Below, piece by piece: positions 1-24,102 of a stretch of 64,000 nucleotides of DNA. The position numbers and the translations under genes are program-made. Origin of the DNA: Candidatus Aenigmatarchaeota archaeon (GTDB taxonomy: Archaea; Aenigmatarchaeota; Aenigmatarchaeia; CG10238-14; SCSR01); NCBI GenBank assembly GCA_039000425.1, contig JAWBPV010000002.1, forward strand, positions 14,303-78,302. The letters run 5' to 3'. Each line of letters starts with the position of its first letter. Positions within the stretch are counted from its first letter, which is position 1. Below the pieces are notes generated by a model, which was not told the DNA's origin, did not search any database, and was given only the letters and a program-made list of their open reading frames with translations.

Positions 1-724
1 GCACTTTCAAAGAACGAATAAAATAGTAATAATCAGAACATCTGAGCCAGCCATAATGCTCCCAACGAACTTGCGGTTCTTGACCGCCAAATAAATTCGC
101 AAGCATAAATTCACGAGCAGGTCCCATTGTCACATACTCAATCTTCTTTGAAACAACATTCGGAAGTTCATGCATCACATTTGATATAATTTTTAAATCA
201 CTTACATGTGAACTACCACCCTGCCAGAATATTCGAATCGGCTCGGTTATTGTTGGATGATCTACTGCAAAAGCAGTATCAACCATATTTGGAAGAACCA
301 CATAAGGTTTATCCTGATTAATTGCCGAATTATAAAATTTAATTAGTTCTTCATTTGGAGAGCACAAAATATTTGCATGTTCAAGCACATATAAAAAATT
401 TTGTTGATTTGCCTTCCAAAAATGATAAGGAAGAACATTCTCAGGAAGAATTTCAAGCATATTATCATCGAGATCGTAAACAAAAGGTCGCTGAGATATC
501 AAACGCTTGAACATATCAAGTTGCTCTTTAGTTAGCGGAACATGTCGACTAAAATAGAAAAGATTATGAAACACAACGTCCAACGTTTCTATAACAGGTT
601 TAAGAGTAACGTGAATCAAATCTCGCGCATAAATATGCAAAGCACGCGCTACAAGAAGAACACGATGATAATCGCATCCGTTGGTCTCAAGATCCTCACC
701 ATTAGCAAAAATAAACAATTTCAT
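1..724 (-). CDS. hypothetical protein, 3' end runs off the window; possible GT-B glycosyltransferase-like fold (weak)
   Basis: Minus-strand ORF opens at ATG 724..722 (MKLFIFANGEDLETNGCDYHRV...) and stays open to position 1. A ...IRIFWQGGSSHVSDLKII... segment is only vaguely glycosyltransferase-like. Not in the ORF track because it lacks a stop in the window. Confidence 0.4.
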   Translation of the reverse strand, partial: MKLFIFANGEDLETNGCDYHRVLLVARALHIYARDLIHVTLKPVIETLDVVFHNLFYFSRHVPLTKEQLDMFKRLISQRPFVYDLDDNMLEILPENVLPYHFWKANQQNFLYVLEHANILCSPNEELIKFYNSAINQDKPYVVLPNMVDTAFAVDHPTITEPIRIFWQGGSSHVSDLKIISNVMHELPNVVSKKIEYVTMGPAREFMLANLFGGQEPQVRWEHYGWLRCSDYYYFIRSLKV

Positions 725-756
725 TTGTATGTATTATACAAAACAAAAAATAAAAA

Positions 757-1023
757 TCAAATATCTAAACGCAATCCTTTATGCAATAATGCAAAAATCA
801 TCTGACTTCCCGCAAGAGCCTCTAGCCCCGCAAAAAAGGAATTCTGAACCACCCCGTACACAACCGCAAGAATTACTGCCATAAAAAAATTAAAAATGTC
901 GCTATATTCTTCGTTCACGTATTTAGTTATAATTTTTTTCAAAGGAAACATTAAAAAAAAGACAATGGCTCCTCCAATCACCAGATGGACTTCTTCAAGA
1001 AGCCTATTAAATAATTGCTCCAT
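757..1023 (-). CDS. small two-TM membrane protein (holin-like candidate)
   Basis: 88 aa with two hydrophobic segments (VIGGAIVFFLMF, FMAVILAVVYGVV). Lies directly upstream of the SLT transglycosylase gene. Confidence 0.45.
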   Translation of the reverse strand: MEQLFNRLLEEVHLVIGGAIVFFLMFPLKKIITKYVNEEYSDIFNFFMAVILAVVYGVVQNSFFAGLEALAGSQMIFALLHKGLRLDI

Positions 1024-1050
1024 ACTTAAAGCATATTAGATTTGTTAAAT

Positions 1051-1536
1051 TTAATCAAATCTCTGAAAGTTGGCATGAAACTCTTCATACGCTTTCATAA
1101 CACGTTCAAAATAATCCGGTCGTTTATTATAACGATTCAATGCTTCTTTGAGATTCTTACTTTTTGACAAATACAATTTTAAAATCAAACATCCAAGAGC
1201 AATATTTTGTTCGGGATCTTTCAAATTAAAACCTTCGTTCACAAAAATCCGCTGCCAAAACCTTGAAATTTGCATCAATCCCACATCTCCCGAATTCGAT
1301 TCAATATGAGCACGAAAATCCGACTCAACTCGAATTATTGCGGCAATCAGCAAAGGATCAATATTCAACAATTCACTACATTTAACAATCAAATCTCCAT
1401 ACTTAATTTTTTTCACAATAAGCGAAGAAACATCTTTTGAAATTGTTGTTTCAAAAGATGTAGAATCAACAAAAATTAATATCAATAAAAAACCAATGAA
1501 ATATACAGCAAGCGTTTTAACAAGAGAACACCACAT
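1051..1536 (-). CDS. membrane-anchored lytic transglycosylase (SLT domain)
   Basis: N-terminal TM segment, then the SLT catalytic block ...IRVESDFRAHIESNSGDVGLMQIS... (the ES...S.A.GLMQ signature). Confidence 0.75.
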   Translation of the reverse strand: MWCSLVKTLAVYFIGFLLILIFVDSTSFETTISKDVSSLIVKKIKYGDLIVKCSELLNIDPLLIAAIIRVESDFRAHIESNSGDVGLMQISRFWQRIFVNEGFNLKDPEQNIALGCLILKLYLSKSKNLKEALNRYNKRPDYFERVMKAYEEFHANFQRFD

Positions 1537-1538
1537 TT

Positions 1539-2126
1539 TTATAATCTAAAATTTTTCTTAAACTTTTTCAATAAAATTTTATAATTCTTTTCCAGCCATA
1601 ATGCTAACGGGCAAGGAGAACTCTCAAGCGAACATATTTTTTCATGCAAATACTGACACCGTTGAGACTCAAATTTTTTATGAATAAACCACCGCGTTAA
1701 CAAATCCAAATCTTCTTTACTGATACTAGAATCAACAGTAAAATCACCATCAAGAAAACGAAATGAATTGTGAGTTATTCGATAATATGCAAAATAAACA
1801 CCATTCTTATACCAGTATACACTAATAACAAAACTTAGCTTATTATCAACAAGGTTCTTTAACTCATTATAAATATCTTCATGTGCTTTTCTAAAAGACT
1901 CATTGAGAAATAATCGTTTATTCCTTTCAGAAGAAATCATTCCCATATCATTAAAAAATGTAATTCGTTTCGTATCATATATAATCATAAAAGGATATTT
2001 TATCCGGCAAGCTGCATCAATTCGAGCAGATAAACCTTTCAATTCATAAAATAATCCAAAATAATTGGATGCGCTCTTGGGCACTCTTTGTACAACCATT
2101 TTATATCCTCTTTTTGAACTTATCAA
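1539..2126 (-). CDS. Cys-rich paralog family member 1 (unknown function)
   Basis: 195 aa. Shares the ISVYWYKNG...LDLLTRWFIHKKF...C-x-C-x-CPLALWLEKN...LLKKF blocks with the next two ORFs. Confidence 0.6.
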   Translation of the reverse strand: MISSKRGYKMVVQRVPKSASNYFGLFYELKGLSARIDAACRIKYPFMIIYDTKRITFFNDMGMISSERNKRLFLNESFRKAHEDIYNELKNLVDNKLSFVISVYWYKNGVYFAYYRITHNSFRFLDGDFTVDSSISKEDLDLLTRWFIHKKFESQRCQYLHEKICSLESSPCPLALWLEKNYKILLKKFKKNFRL

Positions 2127-2634
2127 ATGTAAATTTTTTCAAATCCTTCAACAAAATTTCACGATTCTTCTTCAACCATAGCATTAACGGGCAAGGATAA
2201 TTACCAATTGAACGAGAACATCTTCCCTTGCGCAGACAACTGCACCGTTTGGACTTAAATTTTTTATAAATAAACATACGAGTCAACAAATTCAAATCTT
2301 TTCTATTAATATCAGGATAATTTCTAATAAAAGACCGCAACGACTTGGGAGCAATCTGATACCAGGCAAGAAAGGTATCATTTTTGTACCAATAAACGCT
2401 GATACTAAATTTTGGCTCCCTATTAATAAGATTTTTCAATTCATTACAAGTTTTTTTGGTTAAATTCTTATTTATTTCCGTAAAACCATTGAAATTAAAA
2501 AATATATGTTCACGCCTTCTGTATCGATAAATTTCTTTATCCTTAAAATGCGAAATTTGCCTCATATAACGCACAATTTCGCCAAAAGGCTGCGTTATCC
2601 AACAGCACGCATCAATATTCGGGATGTAATTCAT
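2101..2634 (-). CDS. Cys-rich paralog family member 2
   Basis: 177 aa. ISVYWYKND...LNLLTRMFIYKKFKSKRCSCLRKGRCSRSIGNYPCPLMLWLKKN. Overlaps member 1 by 26 nt. Confidence 0.6.
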   Translation of the reverse strand: MNYIPNIDACCWITQPFGEIVRYMRQISHFKDKEIYRYRRREHIFFNFNGFTEINKNLTKKTCNELKNLINREPKFSISVYWYKNDTFLAWYQIAPKSLRSFIRNYPDINRKDLNLLTRMFIYKKFKSKRCSCLRKGRCSRSIGNYPCPLMLWLKKNREILLKDLKKFTFDKFKKRI

Positions 2635-2692
2635 TTAATTCACAAAATAATTCAAAACAATTAATCATTTTTTGTGATATCCTTTCCGCCAT

Positions 2693-3274
2693 TTAAACCT
2701 CCTTTAGCTCTTTATTAAATCTCTTCATTAAAAAGCGTTCATTTTTTTCTAACCATTCCTTCAAAGTACAATCATGCACTAAAGAATACACACATTTACC
2801 ATCTTTTGTAATGCAACGCAATTTTTTTGATCTAAATTTCTTGGCAATATATATACGACTCAAAATGTTCAAATCCTTAAAATCACCTTCTTCAAACTTA
2901 ATCAATTGGCAGCGATCGGGGGACACAAAAAAGTAAGCTATCGTGCCCGATTCATTCCACCATCGGACATTAATATTAAATCTGGGTTTATCTCTAATTA
3001 AACTTCTCAATTCTTTACATGTAGTTTCAGAAAGCTTCCGCTTACCATCGGCAAGATATTTATTCAAATCTATAAATATTGACCGACTTCTATAGCGCTC
3101 ATTACATACACCACAATGAACAATTGGAATCCGCTTAAATCGAAAATACCCATACGGATTTTTCCAAATCCAACATTGCGCTTCAATTTCCATATCAAGA
3201 TTCTTCAATGTATAATACATAATTGCGCAATTAAGAATCTTTTCAAACTCCTCATCTTTCATGCTCTCCTCCAA
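2693..3274 (-). CDS. Cys-rich paralog family member 3
   Basis: 193 aa. NVRWWNESG...LNILSRIYIAKKFRSKKLRCITKDGKCVYSLVHDCTLKEWLEKN, plus an HCGVCNERY motif. Confidence 0.6.
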   Translation of the reverse strand: MEESMKDEEFEKILNCAIMYYTLKNLDMEIEAQCWIWKNPYGYFRFKRIPIVHCGVCNERYRSRSIFIDLNKYLADGKRKLSETTCKELRSLIRDKPRFNINVRWWNESGTIAYFFVSPDRCQLIKFEEGDFKDLNILSRIYIAKKFRSKKLRCITKDGKCVYSLVHDCTLKEWLEKNERFLMKRFNKELKEV

Positions 3275-3299
3275 GAATACAATTCCTTATTCAATTCTC

Positions 3300-3626
3300 T
3301 CATTTTACAACAAATCTCGTTATTGCAATTATATTTCCATGATTATCCCTAATAACTCCTGTTGACGTATCGGGAGCGACAACATCATCACGATCTTTAA
3401 CCGCATTTAGCACTAATGTTGAAACAATATAGATTACTCCATCTTCTGGAGAAGGCAATCCCTCAATGTCTCCATAAATATTCTTTACCAATGGAATGCC
3501 ATCAATCTCGCCAACAATCTGTTGATCCACCTTAACGCGAGCAATTTTTCCTGAAGGCGGAATCACAATTTGAGAACTCCCAATTTTAACTACAATTGGA
3601 TGAGGCGTCAGATTTACTAACTTCAT
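3300..3626 (-). CDS. hypothetical beta-rich protein
   Basis: 108-aa ORF. GAGGTG-like RBS at 3632-3637 ahead of ATG 3626. Confidence 0.5.
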   Translation of the reverse strand: MKLVNLTPHPIVVKIGSSQIVIPPSGKIARVKVDQQIVGEIDGIPLVKNIYGDIEGLPSPEDGVIYIVSTLVLNAVKDRDDVVAPDTSTGVIRDNHGNIIAITRFVVK

Positions 3627-3653
3627 GGGTTCACCTCTCTTCTCTTGAAGGTT

Positions 3654-3674
3654 AAAAAAAAGGGGCTTTGCCCC
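3654..3674 (-). terminator. intrinsic terminator hairpin after gene 3675..3965
   Basis: On the minus strand, GGGGCAAAGCCCC is followed by a 9-nt T run, immediately after the stop codon at 3675. Confidence 0.6.
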
Positions 3675-3965
3675 TCAAACATTATATCGCCGTATCAATT
3701 CCTGACAGGCCTTGCCCAAGGCCCTGTAATCTTTTCCTAATGCAAAAAACACTTTAATCATTTTAATCGGATTTTCAATTAAATCATCGCACAATGCATC
3801 TACAGAATTCAATTCAGGTGTAAATTCTTTCTGCAATTCTTTTTCCAATAAACATAAATTCTCAATAGCAATGTATGATAACAAATACCCAATAAATTCC
3901 AATTTGTTTAAACCCAATTCTTTTTTTCTAAATTCTTCAATCTTCTTAACTATTTCTTTTTCCAC
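3675..3965 (-). CDS. hypothetical protein (GTG start)
   Basis: 96 aa. GTG at 3965..3963 with AGGAGG 9 nt upstream. The full conserved promoter/RBS module sits at 3976-4004. Confidence 0.5.
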   Translation of the reverse strand: MEKEIVKKIEEFRKKELGLNKLEFIGYLLSYIAIENLCLLEKELQKEFTPELNSVDALCDDLIENPIKMIKVFFALGKDYRALGKACQELIRRYNV

Positions 3966-3975
3966 TAAACATCAC

Positions 3976-4004
3976 CTCCTTTTTCTTTCTTATAACCTAA
4001 AAGC
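3976..4004 (-). promoter_or_regulatory. conserved early promoter/RBS module (instance 1)
   Basis: The minus strand reads TTTAGGTTATAAGAAAGAAAAAGGAGGTG. The same module recurs at six or more other minus-strand gene starts. Confidence 0.5.
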
Positions 4005-4033
4005 TTTAGGGGATTTTGAAAAAAGGAAACTCT

Positions 4034-4876
4034 TTAGAGTTTCAACAGATCTGCAATATTCGCAAAAGGTGCATCCGGCACTTTTATTGCTTGCAAAATT
4101 CCAGCTTTTTCAATACGCACAATCAAAGAAACATTACGTGGCGCATCAAAGAAAGTATAACCTGTTGCATCAGTTACATAAACTTTCTTACGACTAACTC
4201 CAAGCTTATCCCCAACACGCTTTGGCACATCATAACCCACTTCAACTTCCACGCCAGATGCTGGCTCCAAATTCAAATCAACAGCAAAAACATGAATCCG
4301 ACACAATTCAGGATCGGGCGATGGAGTATAAACAATCGGCCCTCCGATAATCTCAATGCTTGTATCATCTTGAACTAAAAGAAATGTCGAATCAAATTTA
4401 TATCCAGCGCGATATGCATTAATCACGTAAGAGCCTCCGCTGAGATATACAATTGCCTTTCCATTTCCATTAGTAAGCGTCTTAAGTATGGGAGTGCTAT
4501 CACTGATTATTGACAACATAACATCTGGAATTATCTGATTATCGGTGGTTTTAGCACTAATTTCAACACGGAATATACCAAATCTATCAGATATTGCGGC
4601 ATAGTTCTTAACAAAAATATGCTCAAGCAAAGGCTCAAAGCCAACACTGGTATATTTAATCAAATAATCTCCTTCAATATCAAAAACAGAAGAATCAAAC
4701 CTTCGGTAATAAACGCCTGGGAGAAAAGAGCTTTCAGTTAAACTAAAAGGACCAAGCTCGGTATCGTCGGGCTTTTTGATAAAACATTCAACCAAAGCAC
4801 CTGAAACACGATTTCCTGCCTCATCAACAAGTTCAACTAACGCTAAAACCTGTTCTCCTAAATTATAACGAATCAT
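4034..4876 (-). CDS. beta-sandwich protein with two CarboxypepD_reg-like domains
   Basis: 280 aa. Two segments resemble carboxypeptidase-regulatory (Ig-like) domains (…NGNGKAIVYLSGGSYVINAYRAGYKF…). Stop/start overlaps the 871-aa gene. Confidence 0.5.
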   Translation of the reverse strand: MIRYNLGEQVLALVELVDEAGNRVSGALVECFIKKPDDTELGPFSLTESSFLPGVYYRRFDSSVFDIEGDYLIKYTSVGFEPLLEHIFVKNYAAISDRFGIFRVEISAKTTDNQIIPDVMLSIISDSTPILKTLTNGNGKAIVYLSGGSYVINAYRAGYKFDSTFLLVQDDTSIEIIGGPIVYTPSPDPELCRIHVFAVDLNLEPASGVEVEVGYDVPKRVGDKLGVSRKKVYVTDATGYTFFDAPRNVSLIVRIEKAGILQAIKVPDAPFANIADLLKL

Positions 4877-7488
4877 GGTTTCTTTATCCGTCTCTTTCCA
4901 ACAAGCATACTGGGACTATAATAAATCTTCGAATTCGCCGCTGGTGGTGCCTCAAAGATAAATTGCATTTTATTTCTATCAAATTTGACTTCGTCGGGTA
5001 TACTCCCAGGTGGTGATGAGATTTCTGGAGTGTATTTGTAACCAAAAAACCCGTTGCTTTGGTTTAAAAACACATAACCATTATCATTGCCAATTATATA
5101 TAAACCGATTTCACTGCTAGGTAATTGCTGCAAATCCCAAAACGGTGACCACGTATGTCCATCTTTTGATCGACGAATCATTAACGACATTGTTGCCACA
5201 TTAATTCCGCATGCTAAATACAAATCTTTAACTTTAGTAATAAAATAAACACCATTTAGTTGCGGTTCAAATTCTGTTGTTGATAAATTCAATCGGCCGA
5301 ATACCGCAGTCGACATGTCATTCATACTTGTCAATCTTATACACCACAAAGAGTCGGCGTTGATCATCACGGGAATCCAGTAGTAGTTACCCGATGGTAC
5401 AATCAAAGGTCCAAATGTAGGTTCGTTTGATGATATATCATATGAAAATGGAAGTATTGCATTTGACGCCAATACAGGTGCAAAACCCGAAATAACTGTG
5501 CCATTCGCCTTTATGGGGCAGCCAATTATAAAGTTTCCACCGCCTGGAACATTTGGGACAATAATATCATCGACAGTGTCGATTGTTTGATTCATTAAAT
5601 CGATTTTGACAAAAGACAATCCAATTGAAACTCCGTCATCACGCATTATACAATAGTAAAACGCATCATTGATTTTAACTGTATTTCCGCCAATGAATCG
5701 CAAAGAAGTTGAGTAATTTATTGGCAAAAAAGTAGCATTTTTAAGTTCTTCAAGTGTTGTTCCCGAACGCATATATGCTCGCTCTTCGAGTCGGATTTCA
5801 TAAATCAAATTATTATCATAAATAAAGAGTTCTCCCTGAAACCCCATCGGAGTAAATTCAACGGGTTCGCTTAACGATTCTGGTATTGGTGGTATATATG
5901 GAGTTTTCCAGTCTTCAGAAACGTCTATAACCGATATTTTACGTAGTACGCCATCTCCAACTAAATCCGCCCAAACATCGATTGCTTCGTTTGGAATAGA
6001 CAGTAATTGTGGCACATCAACATTAAATGTCGTTGTAACTCCATCACCTTCCAAAACACCCGCAGGTTTAATATTTGCAATAATTTTTTCTTCTGTTTTC
6101 TCAATTCTCTCATAAAAATAAGGTTGTAAAATTTCCATTGCGTAATTTAACGGTACAGAGTCTTTACAATAGCTCGGGATATCCCCGATCGGATTTTTAT
6201 TTGGTGAAGTATCATATACTATCTCTTCCTCCGAGCCAAAGAAAAACCCTTTTGCATAGTTAAAAATGTATCCATTTTCTCTGAACACACCACGAAACAT
6301 ATCAGGTCCGTCGGCAATAATAATTTTTCTCGGGTCAACTCCGAAACTACGTAACCATTCTTCATTTCTCAAAAAAGACTGATAATAAAGAAATGCAAAA
6401 AGCGATTTAGAAATTGAACTGAATTTCGTGTATACACCCGAACCAATATTTTTTGTTCTTATCAAACATGAGAATGGATAAAACATTGCACAACAATTTA
6501 AAAAAGATATTGAAGATGACATTTGTGAGAAATCATAGAGTACAAATGGAATTGAAGCAGGTGAAAGCCAAATGTAACATCTATCAAAAACAATTGACGG
6601 AAATCCAACCGAAAAAAATCCCTCCGTTAGATCTAAAAATGCCATCGCATTTATAAAACAAGATTTAAACACTAAAGTTGGCAGCATCGCCGACATTGTA
6701 TGAACTGTAAATTGAGGTTCTCCATTGCTTCGTACCTCAAAAACAGGTTCGCCTGCTTTATGTCGTTGGGTTATTTGTGAAGTATCTATTCTAAGACAAT
6801 TTAAATAAATTCTGTCGTTCGTATGCGCATCAAAATCAAGCGCTGGTGAAATGTGAACTTCGGTTCGATCGTTTGCGGGATCGTAATTCATTGAAACGAT
6901 ATCAAAAATATTAAAAATGGGGAAAAATATGGTTTTGAATGCAAATTTTCTTATTGTGTTCCATGGCGGAACATCGATATTTCCTGCAACATAAATTACA
7001 TTACTTCCAAATGGTGCGTCGGCGACGAGATATGTATTGTAATTTTGGGCATTCATTTGTTCAATGTTGGGATAGATTCCTACGTACCCGCCACTCCAGT
7101 CTATCGCACCCCATACCGGTACGTCTCTAATACCCGTATTTGGTTCAATATCTTCAAGAATTACACCTACATTATCAACATTTGCAACATGGCCTATTTC
7201 AAGTCCTTCGAAAAATGCTTTCGCATCATTGACAATTGAAACTTTGCCAAAGATATGACCATTATAACCAACAAAATGAACAGCTTTGTTATTTAACAAT
7301 ATATCTCCGAATGTATTTCCTATTACAACGACAGTGTCGCCGCTTTCAAGAATAGAATCAACACCTTGCCATGTTTGTTTCGCGGTTTGCCGAGTTAGTC
7401 CATCGTTATCATCATTGCCATTCATTTCATCCCAATAAATCCGTTTTCCCGCTTTAAAAAGACTTTCCATGAACTCGCTTAAAATCAT
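4873..7488 (-). CDS. large right-handed parallel beta-helix (pectate-lyase fold) protein, paralog A; candidate tailspike/depolymerase
   Basis: 871 aa. The N-terminus KRIYWDEMNGNDDNDGLTRQTAKQTWQGVDSILESGDTVVVIGNTF matches the classic G-x-D-x-N-D-G...GDT-V/I signature of beta-helix proteins. Its C-terminus (DRNKMQFIFEAPP..KIYY) aligns with 24099..26669. Confidence 0.7.
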   Translation of the reverse strand: MILSEFMESLFKAGKRIYWDEMNGNDDNDGLTRQTAKQTWQGVDSILESGDTVVVIGNTFGDILLNNKAVHFVGYNGHIFGKVSIVNDAKAFFEGLEIGHVANVDNVGVILEDIEPNTGIRDVPVWGAIDWSGGYVGIYPNIEQMNAQNYNTYLVADAPFGSNVIYVAGNIDVPPWNTIRKFAFKTIFFPIFNIFDIVSMNYDPANDRTEVHISPALDFDAHTNDRIYLNCLRIDTSQITQRHKAGEPVFEVRSNGEPQFTVHTMSAMLPTLVFKSCFINAMAFLDLTEGFFSVGFPSIVFDRCYIWLSPASIPFVLYDFSQMSSSISFLNCCAMFYPFSCLIRTKNIGSGVYTKFSSISKSLFAFLYYQSFLRNEEWLRSFGVDPRKIIIADGPDMFRGVFRENGYIFNYAKGFFFGSEEEIVYDTSPNKNPIGDIPSYCKDSVPLNYAMEILQPYFYERIEKTEEKIIANIKPAGVLEGDGVTTTFNVDVPQLLSIPNEAIDVWADLVGDGVLRKISVIDVSEDWKTPYIPPIPESLSEPVEFTPMGFQGELFIYDNNLIYEIRLEERAYMRSGTTLEELKNATFLPINYSTSLRFIGGNTVKINDAFYYCIMRDDGVSIGLSFVKIDLMNQTIDTVDDIIVPNVPGGGNFIIGCPIKANGTVISGFAPVLASNAILPFSYDISSNEPTFGPLIVPSGNYYWIPVMINADSLWCIRLTSMNDMSTAVFGRLNLSTTEFEPQLNGVYFITKVKDLYLACGINVATMSLMIRRSKDGHTWSPFWDLQQLPSSEIGLYIIGNDNGYVFLNQSNGFFGYKYTPEISSPPGSIPDEVKFDRNKMQFIFEAPPAANSKIYYSPSMLVGKRRIKKP

Positions 7489-7673
7489 AAACCCCTCCGA
7501 TTAATCTCAATATTTATCTTTTCAAGTGCTTTGACAATGTCTTCACGATCACCATATAAACTCCTAGCATTTTCAAATTCCCGTTTCAATTGCAATAATC
7601 TCTCATCGGGCATAAGCTTCAGGTTGAACTTATAATAATATGTCCATAATGATGGTAAAAATGGGCTAGCCAT
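7485..7673 (-). CDS. small helical protein preceding beta-helix paralog A
   Basis: 62 aa, ATGA-overlapped with the 871-aa gene. Weakly similar in pattern to the 83-aa ORF preceding paralog B. Confidence 0.45.
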   Translation of the reverse strand: MASPFLPSLWTYYYKFNLKLMPDERLLQLKREFENARSLYGDREDIVKALEKINIEINRRGL

Positions 7674-7862
7674 TTCTTTTAAGCTTATCGATCATTTCAT
7701 CTGCTTTTTTGCCAACGGTAAGTATCGAAACTCCTATAACGCCAAATATCGCTCCAACAAACAATCCTACCAAGAACCCTATAATGAACGCCTGTACACT
7801 TCCCATATTTTTAAGATAACAAAAAAATAAACTCAAATCAAAACAATTTTCAAATAAAAGTC

Positions 7863-8048
7863 TCAGTCAATTATATGTGTCATAAAAAAAAGTAAGAAAC
7901 AAACAACAAAACCAACTACACCCCAAAAATACAGCATTTCAATATTAAAGATTAATCCCACAAGTCCGACAACAAAACAAATCATCGTTCCAATCAGAAA
8001 AAATTTCCTCATAAGAACATTGTAATCCAATTCAATGCTTCTATGCAA
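7863..8048 (-). CDS. small membrane protein
   Basis: 61 aa and almost entirely hydrophobic. Confidence 0.35.
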   Translation of the reverse strand: MHRSIELDYNVLMRKFFLIGTMICFVVGLVGLIFNIEMLYFWGVVGFVVCFLLFFMTHIID

Positions 8049-8493
8049 AAACCTCTATTTTTGCTGACTTTAAAAAGAGAACATATTTACTACTATTTGC
8101 TACCAACGCCAATTCTCTCGCTTGAACTTCATAGGAAATGTTATAATACGCCTTAAAAAATGAACAAAAACGCAATAAATTCTCAATAAATTCCAAAGCA
8201 TATTTACAATAAAATTTCAACTTTCCATCAATCCGTTGCTGGGCAATATGCACGGTTTCATGCTTGAATATCATAACAGAATGAGGATATTCCAACACTA
8301 TATACGGATCTTGTGCAATGCCCGAATATTTAAAAAACTTAAGTCCTATCCATGCAAAAATTGCACGAATTAGTCCTATTTCTTTAAACAAAGCTGAAAA
8401 AGTATCAACAAGTTTTCCATATTTATAAAGTTCACTGGCCGGATGATAAAGCCCGGGAAGACTCACATAAGAAGTAATCCTATAAACTATCAT
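8041..8493 (-). CDS. hypothetical protein with HExxH motif (possible minimal zincin)
   Basis: 150 aa. Contains ...FKHETVHIAQQ... Confidence 0.4.
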   Translation of the reverse strand: MIVYRITSYVSLPGLYHPASELYKYGKLVDTFSALFKEIGLIRAIFAWIGLKFFKYSGIAQDPYIVLEYPHSVMIFKHETVHIAQQRIDGKLKFYCKYALEFIENLLRFCSFFKAYYNISYEVQARELALVANSSKYVLFLKSAKIEVFA

Positions 8494-9017
8494 TCTCCAG
8501 AATTCCCAAAGATGTAAATGTATTTGCCATCCGCGCCCTTTTTCCAGCGTTCAAAACGATTCCCCATATCTACATGAAAAAAATTCTGTGCAGGATAGTA
8601 ACCCAATCCATTAAATCCACACTGCTCGCACAATGCCCATATGTAACGCTCTATGCCATTGGCCTGGAATTTATAAAACTCGGGCAATTTCGTCAACAAC
8701 TTCGTTCGTGCCGTCTGCGATAAAGTAAAATCAACTGCTTGTTTTTTTGTATGAAACGAATTGAATGCCCCCCCAATTGCAGCATTATGCTCGGGACATC
8801 TATATCCAGATGTAATCAAAATTGGAACGCCAAGCATTGAACGAAATCGGTCAAGAGTTAGAACTAAACTCTCATCCATGTCATAAACGGGGATATTTTT
8901 GTGAATAGAACATTTACAAGCGAACTCCTCAGGACGAAAATATTTGACCTTTGACCAATCCATGAAATTATTATAACTCAAAACGAACTCAAACAACAAC
9001 AAATGTTTGAACGCCAC
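8490..9017 (-). CDS. peptidase M15 family (D-Ala-D-Ala carboxypeptidase / endolysin-like) protein
   Basis: LITSGYRCPEHNAAIGGAFNSFHTKKQAVDF matches the M15 zinc-binding signature. The true start may be the internal Met (MDWSKVKY) at 8963. Confidence 0.75.
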   Translation of the reverse strand: MAFKHLLLFEFVLSYNNFMDWSKVKYFRPEEFACKCSIHKNIPVYDMDESLVLTLDRFRSMLGVPILITSGYRCPEHNAAIGGAFNSFHTKKQAVDFTLSQTARTKLLTKLPEFYKFQANGIERYIWALCEQCGFNGLGYYPAQNFFHVDMGNRFERWKKGADGKYIYIFGNSGE

Positions 9018-10143: not shown

Positions 10144-11413
10144 CAGAAACTAATCACTAAATATATAGAAATCTATTGATATTGATAGAATTTTATTGTG
10201 CAACTTTAATATGAAAAATCAGCTATGATATTTGGATTGATTTTTAATGTTTTTCATGATAAATTATGACTATGATTCGGTCAGCGAAATATACATTGAA
10301 ATTCGCTACAAATAAAAAGAAAAATTATCTTAATCAATTGTTTGACATTTATGTTAAATATCTACAAAAAACAATTGATTTAATGTGGAACAAACAGATT
10401 CCAATCAAGAAGAAGTTATCATCAAAGAAGATAACATGGATGGACGATTTAGGCGGTCAATATAAAAATTTGATATATCAACATGCGTCTCGGATTGTAA
10501 GATCGTGTCGGTTTAAAAAGGGAAAAAAACCGGTGATAAAAAATCCGACTATAACTTTTGATGCGAGAATGGTGAACATTGAAAAATCTCATAACACGTT
10601 TGATAAATGGATCAGACTGAAACTACCATTTATCAAAGATGGATATAAAAATCGTCGGATTGAAATTTTAATCCCGTTAAAGGAGCATCGGCATAGTCTA
10701 AAGTTTAAAGATTGGGAATTAGTTAAATCAGTTCGAATCAACAGGGATTTTGTCACTTTGATATTTAAAAAAGAAACTCCGAAGCCGAAGGAGAACGGCA
10801 AAATAATCGGAATTGATATTGGCTACAAATATTTGATTGCGACTTCGGAAGGCGAACTAATCGGGTCTGAGATGGAACGAATCTATGAAAAGATAGCAAG
10901 GAAAAGACAAGGTTCGAAAGCATTTAAACGAGCATTGATCGAGCGTGATAATAAGATAAATGAAATCATTAACAAAAATCTTGATTTAAGCAATGTAAAG
11001 ATTTTGAAAGTTGAGGACTTGAAAAATGTGAAAAAGAACAGTCATGGTCGGATTAGAAGAAAATTTAATAATAAACTACAAAGGTGGTCATACCCGAAAG
11101 TTATAGATAAGCTGAAACGTGCATGTGAGGAAGAAGCCGTGCAATTCCTCCGTGTGCGTCCAGCTTATAGTTCAATTACATGCCCGAGGTGTCAATTCCG
11201 ACATAAAAGTAACCGTATTGGTGAAAAATTCAAGTGTCGGAATTGTGGCTACGTTAATCATGCCGACATCGTCGGTGCGATAAATGTAGCCAATTGGGAG
11301 CCTATAGTCCCCAATGCACCAAAAACCTCAGTTCAGGAACAAATTTCTATAAACTGAGGAACTATGACCTCAATGATTCTAATGTTTCAATAGTTATTAT
11401 TCGTTCCATAGCT
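10144..11413 (+). mobile_element. IS200/IS605-family insertion (tnpB-only); ends approximate
   Basis: The only long plus-strand gene in a minus-strand block, with no tnpA. A truncated host-family gene lies on its left flank. Boundaries are inferred from the flanking CDS ends, not from identified LE/RE hairpins. Confidence 0.45.
10266..11357 (+). CDS. tnpB: TnpB / IS605 OrfB-type RuvC-like nuclease
   Basis: 363 aa. RuvC-I IGIDIGYKYL, RuvC-II KVEDLKNV, and a C-terminal Zn finger plus RuvC-III (CPRCQF...CRNCGYVNHADIVGAINVA). Confidence 0.85.
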   Translation: MTMIRSAKYTLKFATNKKKNYLNQLFDIYVKYLQKTIDLMWNKQIPIKKKLSSKKITWMDDLGGQYKNLIYQHASRIVRSCRFKKGKKPVIKNPTITFDARMVNIEKSHNTFDKWIRLKLPFIKDGYKNRRIEILIPLKEHRHSLKFKDWELVKSVRINRDFVTLIFKKETPKPKENGKIIGIDIGYKYLIATSEGELIGSEMERIYEKIARKRQGSKAFKRALIERDNKINEIINKNLDLSNVKILKVEDLKNVKKNSHGRIRRKFNNKLQRWSYPKVIDKLKRACEEEAVQFLRVRPAYSSITCPRCQFRHKSNRIGEKFKCRNCGYVNHADIVGAINVANWEPIVPNAPKTSVQEQISIN

Positions 11414-11962
11414 TCAACCAGCTTCTTTGTTTAATTTGTCAATCATTCTCTTTGATGCAACAACCTTGAATATTCTCGTATTTTTTAATTCCTGCATTAT
11501 TTCATCTTTAATTTGATTTGACCTCTTAATCATTTCACTTAGAAATTTTTCAATATACTCAAACAATTCATCTAACTTATGAACATACTTAGCATCTTCA
11601 ATACACTTCTTCACAAATTCATTATCAAAATTTAAAGGTCTAAAAGATTCACTTTCAAGACTTGATTTAGAGATTTGAATATATAATTCGCCATTTTGGA
11701 AAAAAAAGCCAAAATCAGTATATTTATTTAATATGCGATCTATTTTGTCGGCTTTACATCCCAACCTCTTCAATCCTTGCAAAAATGCAATAGCTGCTTC
11801 GTCTTCTCCAGAAATATTTCCAAACTGATTCTTCAGTATTTTAAGGCGATCCGCAATTAGCTCATTAATTTCCTCGCGTAAATCTCTTAAAGTAGAATTA
11901 TCAACAAATCTTTCCCTAAAAATTTCTTGAATTAACTTTTCGACTGAAGAACTAGACCTCAT
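11414..11962 (-). CDS. tandem paralog family P1 (unknown function)
   Basis: 182 aa. Shared blocks: FGNISG..AIAFLQGLK..., DEFVKKCIEDAKYVHKLDELFEYIEKFL, ...QIKDEIMQELKNTRIFKVVAS. Own promoter/RBS module at 11972-11993. Confidence 0.65.
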   Translation of the reverse strand: MRSSSSVEKLIQEIFRERFVDNSTLRDLREEINELIADRLKILKNQFGNISGEDEAAIAFLQGLKRLGCKADKIDRILNKYTDFGFFFQNGELYIQISKSSLESESFRPLNFDNEFVKKCIEDAKYVHKLDELFEYIEKFLSEMIKRSNQIKDEIMQELKNTRIFKVVASKRMIDKLNKEAG

Positions 11963-11971
11963 ACTGCTTAT

Positions 11972-11993
11972 CCCTCCTTTTTTATAACTAAAT
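11972..11993 (-). promoter_or_regulatory. conserved early promoter/RBS module (instance 4, short variant)
   Basis: The minus strand reads TTTAGTTATAAAAAAGGAGGG, then 9 nt, then ATG 11962. Confidence 0.45.
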
Positions 11994-12045
11994 TTACCGA
12001 TTAACTTCAGCTACATCTAAAATTTATTCTTTTGAATTAATTTTC

Positions 12046-12579
12046 TCATTCAATTTGTCCAACCATTCTTTGCAATGCAACAATTTTAAACGTCTGTGTT
12101 TTTTCCAACTCCTGCTCTATCTCATTCTTAATTTGATTTGCTCTGCTAATGAGTTTATCCAAAAATTTTTCAACATACTCGAACAATTCATCCAACTTGT
12201 GAATATATTCAATGTCTTCAATACATTTCTTTACAAATTCATCATCAAGTTCAAAAGGCTCAAAAGTCAAATACTCCTCAAACTTATTAGACCCATCAAT
12301 ATATAATATGCCATTCCCTAATGAAAATCTGAAATCAGTATATTTGTACAGCATATGATCTATTTCTTCAGTTTTATGTCCCAATGCTTTCAACCCTCGC
12401 AAAAACGCAATTGACATTTCCGTTCCTCCAGAAATATCACCAAAATGCTTATACAATGCCTCAAGCCTGTTAACAATTAATTCATTAATTTCTTTGCATA
12501 AATTTTCTAAAATAGAATTATCAATAAAATTCTCTTCACGAATTTCTGCCAACTTTTTAACCAGGTTACTAGATTCCAC
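12046..12579 (-). CDS. tandem paralog family P2 (GTG start)
   Basis: 177 aa. Carries the ...DDEFVKKCIEDIEYIHKLDELFEYVEKFL... block. Upstream is CAATAAGAGGAGGTGAGAC-GTG, a compressed variant of the module. Confidence 0.65.
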   Translation of the reverse strand: MESSNLVKKLAEIREENFIDNSILENLCKEINELIVNRLEALYKHFGDISGGTEMSIAFLRGLKALGHKTEEIDHMLYKYTDFRFSLGNGILYIDGSNKFEEYLTFEPFELDDEFVKKCIEDIEYIHKLDELFEYVEKFLDKLISRANQIKNEIEQELEKTQTFKIVALQRMVGQIE

Positions 12580-12630
12580 GTCTCACCTCCTCTTATTGAT
12601 TAATTACTCGTTTTAAACTGTTTTTCATTT

Positions 12631-13104
12631 TCAACGTCTGCGTTTTCTTTCCAGTTCTCGTCTCAACTTGTCAACCACCCCATTTAGAAATTCTTCAACG
12701 AAATCAAACACCTTATCCAATTTATGAACATACTTTGGATTCTCAACACATTTTTCCACAAATCCATTATAACAACCCAAAAGCTCGAACGCGTCCCATC
12801 TATCACTATTACTCTCATAGGTAGTTGCTCTAACAAATAATCCAAATTTACTCAAATGGAATCTGAAAATATCATACCGATTTAGTATTTCATCAATCAT
12901 TTCAATTTTATATTTTAATGCCTTTAACCCTTCCAAAAGTGAAGTAGTTGCATCTGATTTTCCAGAAATACCACCGAAACGATCATATAACATTTCAACT
13001 CTGCCCTCAATTAACTTATCAATCTCTCTGCGTAACCTTTCAAGAGTCTGATCATCAATGAATCTTTTTTCTTCTATCAACTTTTTAACTAGATCAGATT
13101 CCAT
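12631..13104 (-). CDS. tandem paralog family P3
   Basis: 157 aa. Divergent middle but retains ...KCVENPKYVHKLDKVFDFVEEFL. Upstream GTTATGAAGGGAGG resembles the module. Confidence 0.6.
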   Translation of the reverse strand: MESDLVKKLIEEKRFIDDQTLERLRREIDKLIEGRVEMLYDRFGGISGKSDATTSLLEGLKALKYKIEMIDEILNRYDIFRFHLSKFGLFVRATTYESNSDRWDAFELLGCYNGFVEKCVENPKYVHKLDKVFDFVEEFLNGVVDKLRRELERKRRR

Positions 13105-13163
13105 ATGTACCTCCCTTCATAACGTTGCTTTAGTAAAATTAAAAATAAAATCAATAGGGAACA

Positions 13164-13694
13164 TTATTTGCTTTCGTCACTTTTAGCCAATCTGTCAAGC
13201 AATTTCTTCGATGCAACAATTCTAAATGTCTGAGTCTTTTTCAGCTCATCCATTATTTCATTTCTAATTTGCTCCGATTTATTAATCGTCTCCTTCAGAA
13301 ATTTTTCAATATAATCAAACACTTCATCCAATTTGTGAACGTATTTAGGATTCTCAATACATTTTCTTACAAACTCATCATTACAACGCAAATCAAATCT
13401 AATACCAGATGTATGAGGCGTATATGAGTACCAAACATACAAATCGGCATCTGTAAAGCCAAAGCGAAAATATTTATGATTAGTCAATATATCATCTATT
13501 TCACCAACTTTATATTCTAAAGTCTTCAATCCTTGCAAAAATGCAACGGCCATACCTGCCTCTCCAGAAATATTACCAAAATGCGAATACAATACCTTAA
13601 GTCTCTCAAAAATCACACGATTAATTTCTTCCTTCAAACTTGCAAAAGTGAGATTGTCAACAAACTTTTCTTCACGCGAGGTTAACTCTCCCAT
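13164..13694 (-). CDS. tandem paralog family P4
   Basis: 176 aa. FGNISGEAGMAVAFLQGLK...CNDEFVRKCIENPKYVHKLDEVFDYIEKFL...QIRNEIMDELKKTQTFRIVAS. Confidence 0.65.
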   Translation of the reverse strand: MGELTSREEKFVDNLTFASLKEEINRVIFERLKVLYSHFGNISGEAGMAVAFLQGLKTLEYKVGEIDDILTNHKYFRFGFTDADLYVWYSYTPHTSGIRFDLRCNDEFVRKCIENPKYVHKLDEVFDYIEKFLKETINKSEQIRNEIMDELKKTQTFRIVASKKLLDRLAKSDESK

Positions 13695-14104
13695 TTGTCT
13701 CCTCCGATGAAATCTCCTTTGATTCTGCTCAGAAAATTCTCAACAAAGGCAAATATCTCATCAATTTTATACACATATTTAGGGTCCTCAATACATTTTC
13801 TTATAAATTCATCATCTGCACCAAATTCAAACGTCTTTTCTTCATCACCATAATGAAACAAAACTTGAAGTCCAAAATGGTCAAGCCAAAGTTCACAATA
13901 ATCATACTCGCTAAATAGAAGCGAATCTATTTCTTTAGTACTATAATCATAAGATTTCAATTTTTCCAAGAATTCAATTGCAATCTCCATTTCGCCAGTA
14001 ATAGTGCCAAAACGTTTATGCAACATATTAATCTTTTTCGAAATAAGATCATCAATTGTCTTTCTCAATTCTACAAGCACATTATTATCAAGGTATTTAT
14101 TCAT
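13682..14104 (-). CDS. tandem paralog family P5 (C-terminally shorter)
   Basis: 140 aa. ...ADDEFIRKCIEDPKYVYKIDEIFAFVENFL. Overlaps P4 and P6 by a few nt, so translationally coupled. Confidence 0.6.
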   Translation of the reverse strand: MNKYLDNNVLVELRKTIDDLISKKINMLHKRFGTITGEMEIAIEFLEKLKSYDYSTKEIDSLLFSEYDYCELWLDHFGLQVLFHYGDEEKTFEFGADDEFIRKCIEDPKYVYKIDEIFAFVENFLSRIKGDFIGGDKWES

Positions 14105-14612
14105 TTTCTCCCTCCGCCAATTTATCTAACAATCTCTGCGAAGCAACCTCTCTAAATACCCGCGTCTTCTTTAATTCATTCATAATCTCGTCTTTAATCC
14201 TCTTTGACGAATTCCTCACTTGAATCAAGAAATTTTCAACAAAATCAAATAGCTCATCCAATTTCCAAACATATTCTGAATTATTGATACATCTTCTTAC
14301 AAATTCATCATCACATTCCAATCGAAATTCTCGCTTGTAATCATTACCATCAATCGCTTGGACAACAAGAGCTCTATCATTCAATTTAAAATCAATCGGT
14401 CTATAGCTCAAAAATAGTTTTGCCGAATCCGTGCGAAATCCTGATAGACTCAATCCTTGCAAAAATGCAATGGCCATATCAGAATCTCCACGAATTAGAC
14501 CAAATCTTTTGTAAAGTAATTCAATCTTCTTTCTAATCAAACTATTCAATTCTTCTTTCAATTCTTCAAATGTTCTACAATCAATTAATTTTGATTTTTG
14601 TTCATTACTCAT
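14097..14612 (-). CDS. tandem paralog family P6 (start revised)
   Basis: The track ORF begins at 14699, but the promoter/RBS module (14617-14641) lies inside that extension. ATG 14612 (MSNEQKSKLIDC...) follows GGGAGC with a 6-nt spacer, giving 171 aa. ...ECDDEFVRRCINNSEYVWKLDELFDFVENFL. Confidence 0.65.
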   Translation of the reverse strand: MSNEQKSKLIDCRTFEELKEELNSLIRKKIELLYKRFGLIRGDSDMAIAFLQGLSLSGFRTDSAKLFLSYRPIDFKLNDRALVVQAIDGNDYKREFRLECDDEFVRRCINNSEYVWKLDELFDFVENFLIQVRNSSKRIKDEIMNELKKTRVFREVASQRLLDKLAEGENE

Positions 14613-14616
14613 GTTA

Positions 14617-14641
14617 GCTCCCTTTTTTTTTCTTATAACAA
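14617..14641 (-). promoter_or_regulatory. conserved early promoter/RBS module (instance 5)
   Basis: The minus strand reads TGTTATAAGAAAAAAAAAGGGAGC. Heads the P6-P5-P4 coupled unit. Confidence 0.45.
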
Positions 14642-14757
14642 GTTTTAATCCGCAAAATAAATTTAGGTAATAATTATTTAAAAACCATGAATTAATCACA
14701 AAAAAACGCTACAAAGCTAAAATAAAGGAAGAGTGAGGCCACTCTCCCTTTTTATTA

Positions 14758-16131
14758 CTAATCCAGATAGATAGTCCAACCGTAAGGCGCAGGCGTCGCC
14801 TTACGATCGGTGCAAATCCACAACACAGGAAATTTAACTTTTTCAATTGGCGGAAACTGATCAATTGCCAAATCAGTAAAGTAGATCAGTGGTCTCAATC
14901 TTGTTGAATTTATATAATCAAATACTTCATTGTAATCAGTCCCTCCTCTTCCATGAATTTTAATTTTTTCACCTTCCAATTTATCTGGGTACTCAATTTT
15001 CGTAATTTTCGCAATTTTTGCATCAGCCTCAATAAGCTCGATAGAATAATCACTAAAGTACTTCAATATGCCATTAATTTCGCTAAATACTTTAACCAAT
15101 TCATCCCGGCTCATTGAACCGGACGTATCTACCGCAATTACAATATCTAACTTTTTATTTCTCAATGTCGGAATGTAAACACCTTCCAACAGCAATTTCT
15201 TATTCGGAAATAACCAATTTATTCTACGTCTCGCAATCTTAGTCAAAAAGTCTCCTAATATTTGTCTCCAATTCAATTTTGGATGCAGAATGTTCTCAAT
15301 TATCTCAACTAATCCTGCGGGAATTTTCCCGCATAACTTCGAATAGGCGAATGCTTCAGCAATCTGCTTTTTCAATTCCTCTTCCAACTTAGCCTTCTCT
15401 CCTTCACTCAATTGCTCCGAGGAATTATGAACATCGGGGTTTTTCCCCGATAAATCGTCTTTTTCAATCTCATATCCTTCAGGAATTCCTTTAATTTTAA
15501 CTTTTCCAATTGTTCCTTCGAAATTTTCCTTTTTAATCGCACCTTCTGAATTTCCCGAAGAAGAATCTGCAGAACTATCCGAAGTTTTCTTAGAATTAGA
15601 AGAATTAGAAAACGAAATTGATTTTTCCAACAACTTATAATATTCCTCCCAGCTCAATCCTTCTGGGAAGCCAAACATAGCTGGTTCAATCCACGAAATC
15701 CCTGGAATGTCTGGAGATTTAAATCCAATACTTTTCAACAAAGAGTTTACTGCTAAATCTTGCGCGATATTCGTCAACGGTGGCTTCGAATAAGCCGCCG
15801 GAATGCGAAAATGCATCAATATCAAATGCAAAATCTCATGCATAATCACATTCATTAAATCTCTTTTGCTTCTCATCAATGAAACAAATATTGGATTTAA
15901 TCTTATAGTTAATGGTTTGAAATCAATTCTCGCTGTTGGAATATCATAATCAAATACTTGAGGAATTGACAATACAAATGACGAAAAGAACGGATAACTT
16001 AATATGATTTCAATCTTAGCCTTTTCCAATCGGTCAATAATTTCAGGCTTAATTCCTTCAATCCTTTCTTTTATTTTCTTCTCAATTTCTTTAAGATCCA
16101 CCTTCATTTTAGTCCCCCATAAATGGATCAT
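14758..16131 (-). CDS. VWA-domain protein with N-terminal HExxH metallopeptidase-like domain (MoxR partner), copy 1
   Basis: 457 aa. HEILHLILMH zinc motif in the N-terminal half. MIDAS motif DIVIAVDTSGSMS in the C-terminal half. Overlaps the start of the downstream AAA+ gene. Confidence 0.75.
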   Translation of the reverse strand: MIHLWGTKMKVDLKEIEKKIKERIEGIKPEIIDRLEKAKIEIILSYPFFSSFVLSIPQVFDYDIPTARIDFKPLTIRLNPIFVSLMRSKRDLMNVIMHEILHLILMHFRIPAAYSKPPLTNIAQDLAVNSLLKSIGFKSPDIPGISWIEPAMFGFPEGLSWEEYYKLLEKSISFSNSSNSKKTSDSSADSSSGNSEGAIKKENFEGTIGKVKIKGIPEGYEIEKDDLSGKNPDVHNSSEQLSEGEKAKLEEELKKQIAEAFAYSKLCGKIPAGLVEIIENILHPKLNWRQILGDFLTKIARRRINWLFPNKKLLLEGVYIPTLRNKKLDIVIAVDTSGSMSRDELVKVFSEINGILKYFSDYSIELIEADAKIAKITKIEYPDKLEGEKIKIHGRGGTDYNEVFDYINSTRLRPLIYFTDLAIDQFPPIEKVKFPVLWICTDRKATPAPYGWTIYLD

Positions 16132-17143: not shown

Positions 17144-17155
17144 TATAGTTTTAAC

Positions 17156-17180
17156 CTCCTTTTCTTTTCTTATAACTTTT
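17156..17180 (-). promoter_or_regulatory. conserved early promoter/RBS module (instance 6)
   Basis: The minus strand reads AAAAGTTATAAGAAAAGAAAAGGAGG. Confidence 0.45.
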
Positions 17181-17235
17181 CTAACGCACATTTTTTTGTC
17201 ACGGAAAAACGGCTAGCTAAAAATTAATTAATTTA

Positions 17236-23850: not shown

Positions 23851-24102
23851 TTGATTTTTTGCGAAAGGTTTTTTATAATAAGGAACATGAATGATTTAAT
23901 TTCTTTATTGAAAACATCATATTTGCATGCTGACATTTCCACTTTGCCCGATACCGAGCTTCAGAGCTTGTATTCCAAACTTGTCAAGGCGTCTCAGCTT
24001 ACTCCCAATAATGTCTTAGTTTCAAAGATGCTTGATAAAGTAAATATGGAAATTGCAAAAAGGGTGCCTCAAGATAATTCTTCTGAAGGAGGAGTACTTT
24101 GA
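23851..24102 (+). CDS. small helical protein preceding beta-helix paralog B
   Basis: 83 aa. Overlaps the start of the 856-aa gene. Pattern similar to 7485..7673. Confidence 0.5.
   Translation: MIFCERFFIIRNMNDLISLLKTSYLHADISTLPDTELQSLYSKLVKASQLTPNNVLVSKMLDKVNMEIAKRVPQDNSSEGGVL

Follow-up and report, generated by a model that had tools for sequence, protein, structure and literature searches.

The 64,000-nucleotide stretch of contig JAWBPV010000002.1 analyzed here (the window) carries three tandem minus-strand genes, Q3, Q2, and Q1, that encode an anciently duplicated, lineage-restricted orphan family of basic, cysteine-bearing cytoplasmic proteins in what is most likely a novel tailed bacteriophage. 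An all-against-all BLASTP comparison of the window's open reading frames (ORFs) of ≥50 amino acids (aa) paired Q1 with Q2 (41% identity, E 9e-33), Q2 with Q3 (35% identity, E 2e-21), and Q1 with Q3 (30% identity, E 1e-15), and a family hidden Markov model together with tblastn returned exactly three copies and no fragments, in agreement with the first-pass annotation of this DNA, which had described tandem paralogs. As to function, we favor, at a probability of roughly 0.3, the reading that Q1–Q3 are metal-stabilized accessory proteins that bind nucleic acid or another polyanion and belong to an early host-takeover or anti-defense operon.

The proteins are about 190 aa long, with isoelectric points of 9.3–9.9 and net charges of +11, +24, and +13. 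Lysine and arginine make up 17–21% of their residues and phenylalanine, tryptophan, and tyrosine 14–17%, while cysteine accounts for 2.2–4.8%, compared with 1.3% in the long ORFs of the window. A check of sequence and hydropathy found no hydrophobic segment in Q1–Q3 compatible with a transmembrane (TM) helix, a signal peptide, or a lipobox.

Gene models of the Q trio

The longest minus-strand ORFs for Q1, Q2, and Q3 span positions 1539–2126 (195 aa), 2101–2634 (177 aa), and 2693–3274 (193 aa), respectively, and these are the lengths that had been assigned at first. The ORFs exist, but their boundaries needed correction. The ATG starts of Q1 (2099) and Q3 (3262) are each preceded by a Shine-Dalgarno-like sequence, agree with both the NCBI and the Logan gene calls, and give proteins of 186 and 189 aa. 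A reported 26-nt overlap of Q1 and Q2 proved to be an artefact, as it requires an upstream TTG start of Q1; the ATG start leaves a 1-nt spacer.

Q2 was compared with four related contigs from other sequencing runs, which are 95% (L001), 97% (L002), 99.8% (L003), and 99.93% (L004) identical to the window. In the window, translation from the ATG at 2692 yields a 26-codon stub, and the remainder of the gene forms the 177-aa ORF at 2101–2634 (NCBI MEM5852919.1). The cause is a CCC run with one C more than in any of the four related contigs, and deleting the extra C restores exactly the protein seen in independent assemblies (P0006). The first 24 residues of the intact 196-aa Q2 can be aligned to the N-terminal ends of the other two proteins, and its ATG abuts the Q3 stop codon (TAAATG). 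The 177-aa Q2 is a frameshift truncation, and the extra C most likely reflects either a mistake in the assembly or consensus or a rare variant. Programmed frameshifting was rejected, as all four other assemblies at the site (4/4) lack the extra C, one of them being 99.93% identical over 3 kb. The ATG starts and the restored Q2 thus correct the gene models of the deposited metagenome-assembled genome (MAG) contig, for which NCBI annotates the truncated 177-aa product.

Conserved motifs, cysteines, and predicted structure

The sequence blocks named in the first-pass annotation are present in the alignment of the three proteins. The first, F-x-I-(S/N)-V-(Y/R)-W-(Y/W) followed by A-(Y/W)-(Y/F), covers the stretches ISVYWYKN(G) and NVRWWNES(G); the second, described as LxLLTRxFIxKKF, reads KDL-x-(L/I)-L-(T/S)-R-x-(F/Y)-I-x-KKF-x-S; and the tail consists of the C-terminal cysteines followed by L-x-x-WL-(E/K)-KN-x-x-x-L-x-K. 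Pairwise identity is 33–49% in the C-terminal 110 residues versus 25–34% in the N-terminal 75.

Three cysteine columns are invariant among the three aligned sequences (Q2 positions 30, 158, and 167), and a fourth cysteine is present in all copies, at C150 in Q2 and two columns away in Q3 (aligned position 152). The conserved set comprises one N-terminal cysteine, within I-(D/E)-A-x-C-(W/R)-I, and C-x6-7-C-x6-8-C near the C-terminus; the C-terminal cysteines are single residues 5–8 apart, and the remaining one lies about 120 residues upstream. The motif of three C-terminal cysteines first proposed omitted the fourth conserved cysteine near residue 30, and the proline of its "CP" is not conserved across the trio. 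The cysteines of Q1 are the conserved four only (C31, C148, C156, and C163). All four are retained in every strain variant, and a non-conserved cysteine varies (C152Y). Positions 12 and 82 are both cysteine in Q2 and Q3 and both tyrosine in Q1, and this coupled change suggests that the two positions touch each other.

The alignment contains no conserved CxxC pair, only a private C50-x2-C53 in Q3, and no histidine is invariant among the three paralogs. A classical zinc finger, zinc ribbon, or treble cleft was rejected, as the Q proteins lack two CxxC or CxxH knuckle pairs. Judged by its spacing, the cysteine pattern would suit either a zinc or an Fe-S site to the same degree; the small zinc-binding domain suggested at first is plausible, with an atypical motif.

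AlphaFold2 models built from the three-sequence alignment reached a predicted local distance difference test (pLDDT) score of 44 for Q2 and 58 for Q1, the latter with a predicted template modeling score of 0.58. The Q1 model is best in its core (residues 88–145, pLDDT 73–82) and C-terminal helix (about 70–77) and falls below 50 in the loop at 32–70. In order, its predicted elements are alpha1 and beta1, then a long loop, alpha2, beta2-beta3-beta4, alpha3, alpha4, and alpha5, which points with low to moderate confidence to a single alpha/beta fold with a four-stranded antiparallel sheet packed by helices. As far as these models go, the cysteines would belong to one alpha/beta protein of about 190 aa with no separable C-terminal domain. 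Foldseek searches with these weak models returned nothing from BFVD at E ≤ 1e-3 and likewise no match among PDB folds; because the models are weak, the fold cannot be proved new.

Searches for relatives

Sequence searches left the family without relatives. Pfam, PHROGs, NCBIfam, and PADLOC gave only isolated sub-threshold matches at E ≤ 1 (best E 0.018) of no consistent kind, and a profile search of PDB sequences gave none at E ≤ 10. Neither tblastn of the Q proteins against 50,697 phage records nor blastn of window positions 1–8000 against phages returned a match. Only the three Q proteins themselves came back from a profile search across 5.8 billion clustered proteins and from an exhaustive hmmsearch of 1.84 billion representatives, and no relative turned up when IMG/VR, GTDB species genomes, and JGI metagenome contigs were scanned by pattern and tblastn. 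On this evidence, the Q family appears confined to one species-level phage lineage, seen in a handful of sequencing runs. The statement of the first-pass annotation that the proteins could not be placed held up, with HNH, PD-(D/E)xK, and anti-CRISPR (Acr)-like families unmatched in Pfam, PHROGs, NCBIfam, PADLOC, PDB, and BFVD.

Specific candidates were also rejected one at a time. For HNH or His-Me finger nucleases there is no Pfam, PHROG, or NCBIfam match at E ≤ 1 and no invariant histidine, and the catalytic triad together with the C-xn-C-x2-C-x5-C pattern of PD-(D/E)xK/Cas4-like nucleases was not found. GIY-YIG has no PF01541 match at E ≤ 1; the Q proteins show a loose likeness in VYW-x7-9-(A)YY-x8-R and lack the conserved downstream Glu/Asn. 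The full GNAT acetyltransferase fold with its (Q/R)xxGx(G/A) pyrophosphate-binding loop was not seen. No annotated PHROG or PADLOC match at E ≤ 1 connects the proteins to a known anti-CRISPR, anti-defense, or defense family. The lambda-type Q antiterminator has no Pfam match, and the stop codon of Q1 lies 2 nt from the start of the SLT gene.

A second group of paralogs, P1–P6, lies at 11414–14699 on the minus strand and consists of six tandem copies that are 36–56% identical and have no Pfam match. Relatedness of Q to P1–P6 was rejected (hhalign probability 0.4%, E 0.15), so the Q trio does represent an independent expansion, as the first-pass annotation had stated.

Strain variants and selection

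Relative to the 95%-identical L001, the ratio of nonsynonymous to synonymous substitution rates (dN/dS) is 0.14 for Q3, 0.06 for Q2, and 0.06 for Q1, from few differences (30, 9, and 5). The order Q3-Q2-Q1-SLT and the copy number are unchanged in the related contigs that span the genes. These comparisons indicate that the Q genes are real and under purifying selection. Divergence from L001 is mosaic: at 2900–3500, nucleotide identity is about 87% over the Crn4b-like gene described below and the first 80 codons of Q3, while the rest of the trio (including Q2 and Q1) and most of the SLT gene are 97–100% identical, with a second dip to 90% at 1301–1500. A likely cause of this mosaic is recombination, with junctions within both Q3 and the SLT gene.

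Genomic neighborhood of the Q trio

The Q genes are part of a tight gene string on the minus strand (Table 1). Read along that strand, the upstream part consists of genes for an 871-aa and a 280-aa protein, a terminator-like hairpin at 4043–4026, a 96-aa ORF, the hairpin at 3676–3660, and the gene for a 108-aa protein; Q3, Q2, Q1, SLT, the 88-aa gene, a glycosyltransferase gene, small ORFs, DnaB, and DnaG follow. From the 108-aa gene through the 88-aa gene, the spacers measure 37, 0, 1, 2, and 27 nt. No terminator-like site lies between 3660 and 679, the next one being at 658–679, and the hairpin at 3660–3676 is likely the 5' boundary of the unit.

Table 1. Positions of the Q genes and adjoining features in the window.
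Feature	Position	Strand	Size	Remarks
Q3	2693–3262	minus	189 aa	NCBI MEM5852920.1; P0001; ATG 3262 after GGAGGAG; longest ORF reaches TTG 3274
Q2	2101–2692	minus	196 aa	Length wherever a related assembly covers the site (P0002, P0006); +1 frameshift in window
Q2 frameshift site	2621–2623	minus		CCC run (GGG on plus strand); one C more than L001, L002, L003, L004
Q1	1539–2099	minus	186 aa	NCBI MEM5852918.1; P0003; ATG 2099, 1 nt past Q2 stop
Crn4b-like ring nuclease	3300–3626	minus	108 aa	First gene of the tight string with Q; no Pfam model
Terminator-like hairpin	3660–3676	minus		GAGGGGCAAAGCCCCTT plus T run, just upstream of Crn4b-like gene; strong
SLT lytic transglycosylase	1051–1536	minus	161 aa	N-terminal hydrophobic anchor; Pfam PF01464, E 2e-14; 2 nt past Q1 stop
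88-aa protein	757–1023	minus	88 aa	Two hydrophobic segments; shape alone suggests a holin; no family match

The most informative neighbor, which the first-pass annotation did not mention, is the 108-aa protein encoded directly upstream of Q3. It matches PADLOC PDLC01138 ("Unk_01, sometimes fused to CARF") at E 3.6e-25 and, among PDB entries, Crn4b (9r7b, E 2e-7) and Crn4a (9sma, E 2e-5). Its T7 and H9 (in NLTPH) and R93 (in IRD) align with the catalytic residues T13, H15, and R112 of Crn4a; homology to Crn4a/Crn4b and the conserved T, H, and R, which together mark membership in Crn4, thus both appear to be present. Crn4b orthologues on phages and plasmids are rare, and an anti-CRISPR role has been proposed for them (PMC12830947). 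We regard the 108-aa protein as a candidate enzyme against type III CRISPR or CBASS; the Q trio is co-located, and probably co-expressed, with it in an accessory block.

The position of the trio directly upstream of SLT and holin-like genes, as first described, stands for SLT, whereas "holin" is a hydrophobicity call only. Among PHROGs, the SLT gene matches tail lysins as well as phrog_342 ("internal virion protein with endolysin domain"), and the 355-aa glycosyltransferase encoded farther downstream matches phrog_7162, in the category "moron, auxiliary metabolic gene and host takeover." Other lysis genes are found at 7666–9017 on the minus strand, where a Peptidase_M15 endolysin gene (phrog_894, E 1e-29) is followed by an ORF for a protease-like protein of 150 aa and by genes for two small proteins with one TM segment each. 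This is probably the main lysis cassette, which would make the SLT protein a second wall hydrolase.

Probable phage identity of the contig and other features of the window

The contig from which the window is taken is 113,831 bp long and was deposited as part of a MAG labeled Candidatus Aenigmatarchaeota archaeon. The window encodes a family-A DNA polymerase, UDG, an intein-bearing terminase-like protein, the Peptidase_M15 endolysin, and SLT; DnaB and a DnaG-type primase lie just outside its left edge; and Shine-Dalgarno sites and hairpin-plus-T-run terminators are present. Because of these genes and signals, the contig is most likely a large tailed bacteriophage of a bacterial host, placed in an archaeal MAG by mis-binning. 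The polymerase shares no more than 27% identity with those of cultured phages, the nearest being about 26% identical, and an Oceanotoga phage ranks best. Searches of IMG/VR returned no relative of DnaB, SLT, or the 871-aa protein, and at E ≤ 1e-10 SLT matched only its own strain variant among 5.8 billion proteins. With the entire lineage standing so far from known sequences, orphan Q genes are expected rather than surprising. The early region to which the trio was first assigned is plausible, because the Q genes share strand and block with DnaB, DnaG, PolA, and UDG.

Several duplicated or inserted modules were noted elsewhere. An inverted duplicate module occupies 4873–7673 (minus strand) and 23851–26669 (plus strand); its 871-aa and 856-aa proteins are 37% identical over 866 aa and have no Pfam, PHROG, or PDB sequence match, and a related small ORF (about 60–80 aa) precedes each gene. 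Paralogous pairs of a MoxR-like AAA ATPase beside a DUF2201 metallopeptidase/VWA-like protein are encoded at 14758–17191 and 31287–33694, both on the minus strand. At 10266–11357, a 363-aa TnpB/Cas12f1-like protein (PF07282 TNB domain, E 3e-16) is encoded on the plus strand within a minus-strand block and is probably an inserted IS200/IS605-type element. The 931-aa terminase-large-subunit-like protein (57120–59915, plus strand) is interrupted by an intein that contains a LAGLIDADG-like domain (PF14890, E 8e-16). The phage also encodes an ATP-grasp protein of the GARS-like kind (37861–39276, plus strand; PF01071, E 2e-11), and the 36–38 kb segment around it has a raised GC content (0.44, versus about 0.35).

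Possible functions of the Q proteins

Under the reading we favor, the four cysteines would form one structural metal site, either Zn or Fe-S, linking the N-terminal strand with the helices at the C-terminus, and the basic, aromatic surface would bind nucleic acid or another polyanion. The genes would be translationally coupled and carried on one transcript with the upstream Crn4b-type gene and the downstream SLT, small TM protein, and glycosyltransferase genes. Because they share this string, the Q proteins may be accessory host-takeover or anti-defense factors rather than structural, replication, or lysis proteins, and the three copies might each have a separate target or form a hetero-oligomer.

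Several observations weigh against this assignment. No homology backs any Q function. The spacing C-x6-7-C-x6-8-C with a distant fourth cysteine fits no classical zinc motif, and the Q1 stretch 147–160, with the first two C-terminal cysteines, is modeled at pLDDT below 50. The promoter and terminator calls are consensus matches only. The low dN/dS between strains is unlike that of an arms-race gene, and anti-defense proteins known so far are mostly small and acidic, whereas the Q proteins are large and very basic. Finally, 23 other viral contigs in IMG/VR carry a Crn4b homologue and no Q-like ORF (best E 0.07). These contigs share no other gene with the window, and the association of Q with Crn4b is specific to one lineage because the other viral Crn4b contigs lack Q. 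The rival functions considered below overlap in part with the favored reading, and the remaining probability belongs to functions outside those considered.

The first rival is that the Q proteins are dedicated anti-defense inhibitors or sponges, acting with the Crn4b-like nuclease against cyclic-oligoadenylate signaling (type III CRISPR or CBASS) or another host system, with one target per paralog. Anti-defense genes tend to cluster, and the trio is an orphan set, tandemly expanded in an accessory block, directly downstream of a viral Crn4b homologue that retains the catalytic residues and with which it appears to share a transcript. This specific role is nevertheless unlikely: none of the 23 other viral Crn4b genes has a Q homologue nearby, no Acr-type PADLOC or PHROG entry was matched, and strongly basic proteins of about 190 aa under purifying selection are unlike most known Acrs and sponges.

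Transcription regulators that bind DNA are quite unlikely as well, whether Aca-like autoregulators of the Crn4b operon or activators or antiterminators of the SLT and membrane-protein genes in the style of the Q protein of phage lambda. The lambda protein is a zinc-binding basic protein of about 200 aa whose gene precedes the lysis genes, and the trio, which follows an Acr-type gene and precedes a peptidoglycan hydrolase, encodes basic proteins of about 190 aa with conserved cysteines and a predicted helical C-terminal third. No helix-turn-helix, Phage_antitermQ, or other DNA-binding family was matched at E ≤ 1, however; the 2 nt between Q1 and SLT leave no space for a promoter, qut site, or terminator; and three paralogs would be unexpected for an autoregulator.

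A bolder reading, which we regard as distinctly doubtful, is that Q1–Q3 represent an unseen fold and family of metal-dependent anti-defense proteins deployed with Crn4b by a thermophile-type phage. Their ligands might then be cyclic or linear oligoadenylates, crRNA, or the nucleic acid substrates of effectors, with each of the three paralogs tuned to its own signal or effector. If true, a metal-dependent module that binds nucleic acids or signals and works alongside a ring nuclease would constitute a new protein family, possibly with a new fold, in phage counter-defense, and a rare case of such a family from a thermophile-type phage. It is the Crn4b neighbor that makes the trio a candidate for experimental anti-defense screening.

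Two further explanations are each very unlikely. Degenerate or novel nucleases, or genes akin to homing endonucleases, could have a Cas4/AddB-like Fe-S fold or a GIY-YIG-like core. One N-terminal and three C-terminal cysteines with an alpha-beta-beta-beta-alpha core recall Cas4-type PD-(D/E)xK nucleases, the VYW...AYY...R spacing loosely resembles GIY-x10-YIG-x8-10-R, and multi-copy free-standing genes are typical of homing endonucleases. Yet Cas_Cas4, PDDEXK, GIY-YIG, and HNH models in Pfam and PHROG are unmatched at E ≤ 1, the cysteine spacing differs from C-xn-C-x2-C-x5-C, and no histidine is invariant; the only invariant acidic residues (E84 and D132 in Q2 numbering) lie in predicted helices rather than adjacent strands, and the tight, translationally coupled tandem is unlike the layout of mobile endonuclease genes.

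The other is that the Q proteins are virion-internal, ejected, or DNA-condensing basic proteins that act with the membrane-anchored SLT at genome entry. Their high positive charge would suit such a role, SLT domains occur in internal virion and ejection proteins (as in the phrog_342 and tail-lysin matches), and large beta-helix-like 871-aa and 280-aa genes lie upstream. Against this, the trio is on the strand and in the block of the replication genes, whereas the terminase gene and the large genes that look structural lie on the plus strand; the SLT protein is small (161 aa) and stand-alone; and Q matches no structural PHROG. A role as accessories to lysis (antiholin, spanin, or endolysin regulators) for the SLT and TM-protein pair, which the trio adjoins and to which it is probably translationally coupled, is highly improbable, given that Q1–Q3 lack a TM segment, a signal peptide, and a lipobox and that a more canonical cassette of Peptidase_M15 endolysin and small TM proteins is located at 7666–9017.

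Comparison with known systems

The Q proteins were compared with five kinds of known proteins. GNAT-fold acyltransferases, which include the anti-CRISPR AcrVA5, have a fold and a pyrophosphate-binding loop that were not found in Q. The zinc-binding antiterminators of the lambda Q type resemble the trio in being basic, cysteine-containing proteins of about 200 aa encoded before peptidoglycan-hydrolase and membrane-protein genes; the trio differs in having three copies and no homology, CxxC pairs, or space (2 nt) for a promoter, qut site, or terminator. Viral ring nucleases and sponges (AcrIII-1/Crn2, Crn4b, Acb2, and Tad1/2) share genomic company with Q only, through the Crn4b-like gene; the Q proteins are larger and very basic, without sequence or fold similarity to them, and other Crn4b loci lack Q. 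The Fe-S regulators of the Rrf2 type (IscR/NsrR) are likewise basic proteins of about 160–190 aa with three single C-terminal cysteines 5–8 residues apart and a fourth ligand elsewhere; Q has no detectable winged helix-turn-helix and no sequence similarity to them, so that the likeness is one of cysteine pattern only. Like Q, the Fe-S PD-(D/E)xK nucleases of the Cas4/AddB type measure about 190 aa and have a single conserved cysteine toward the N-terminus, three toward the C-terminus, and an alpha/beta core, which in Q is predicted, and their frequency in phage genomes is a further point of likeness.

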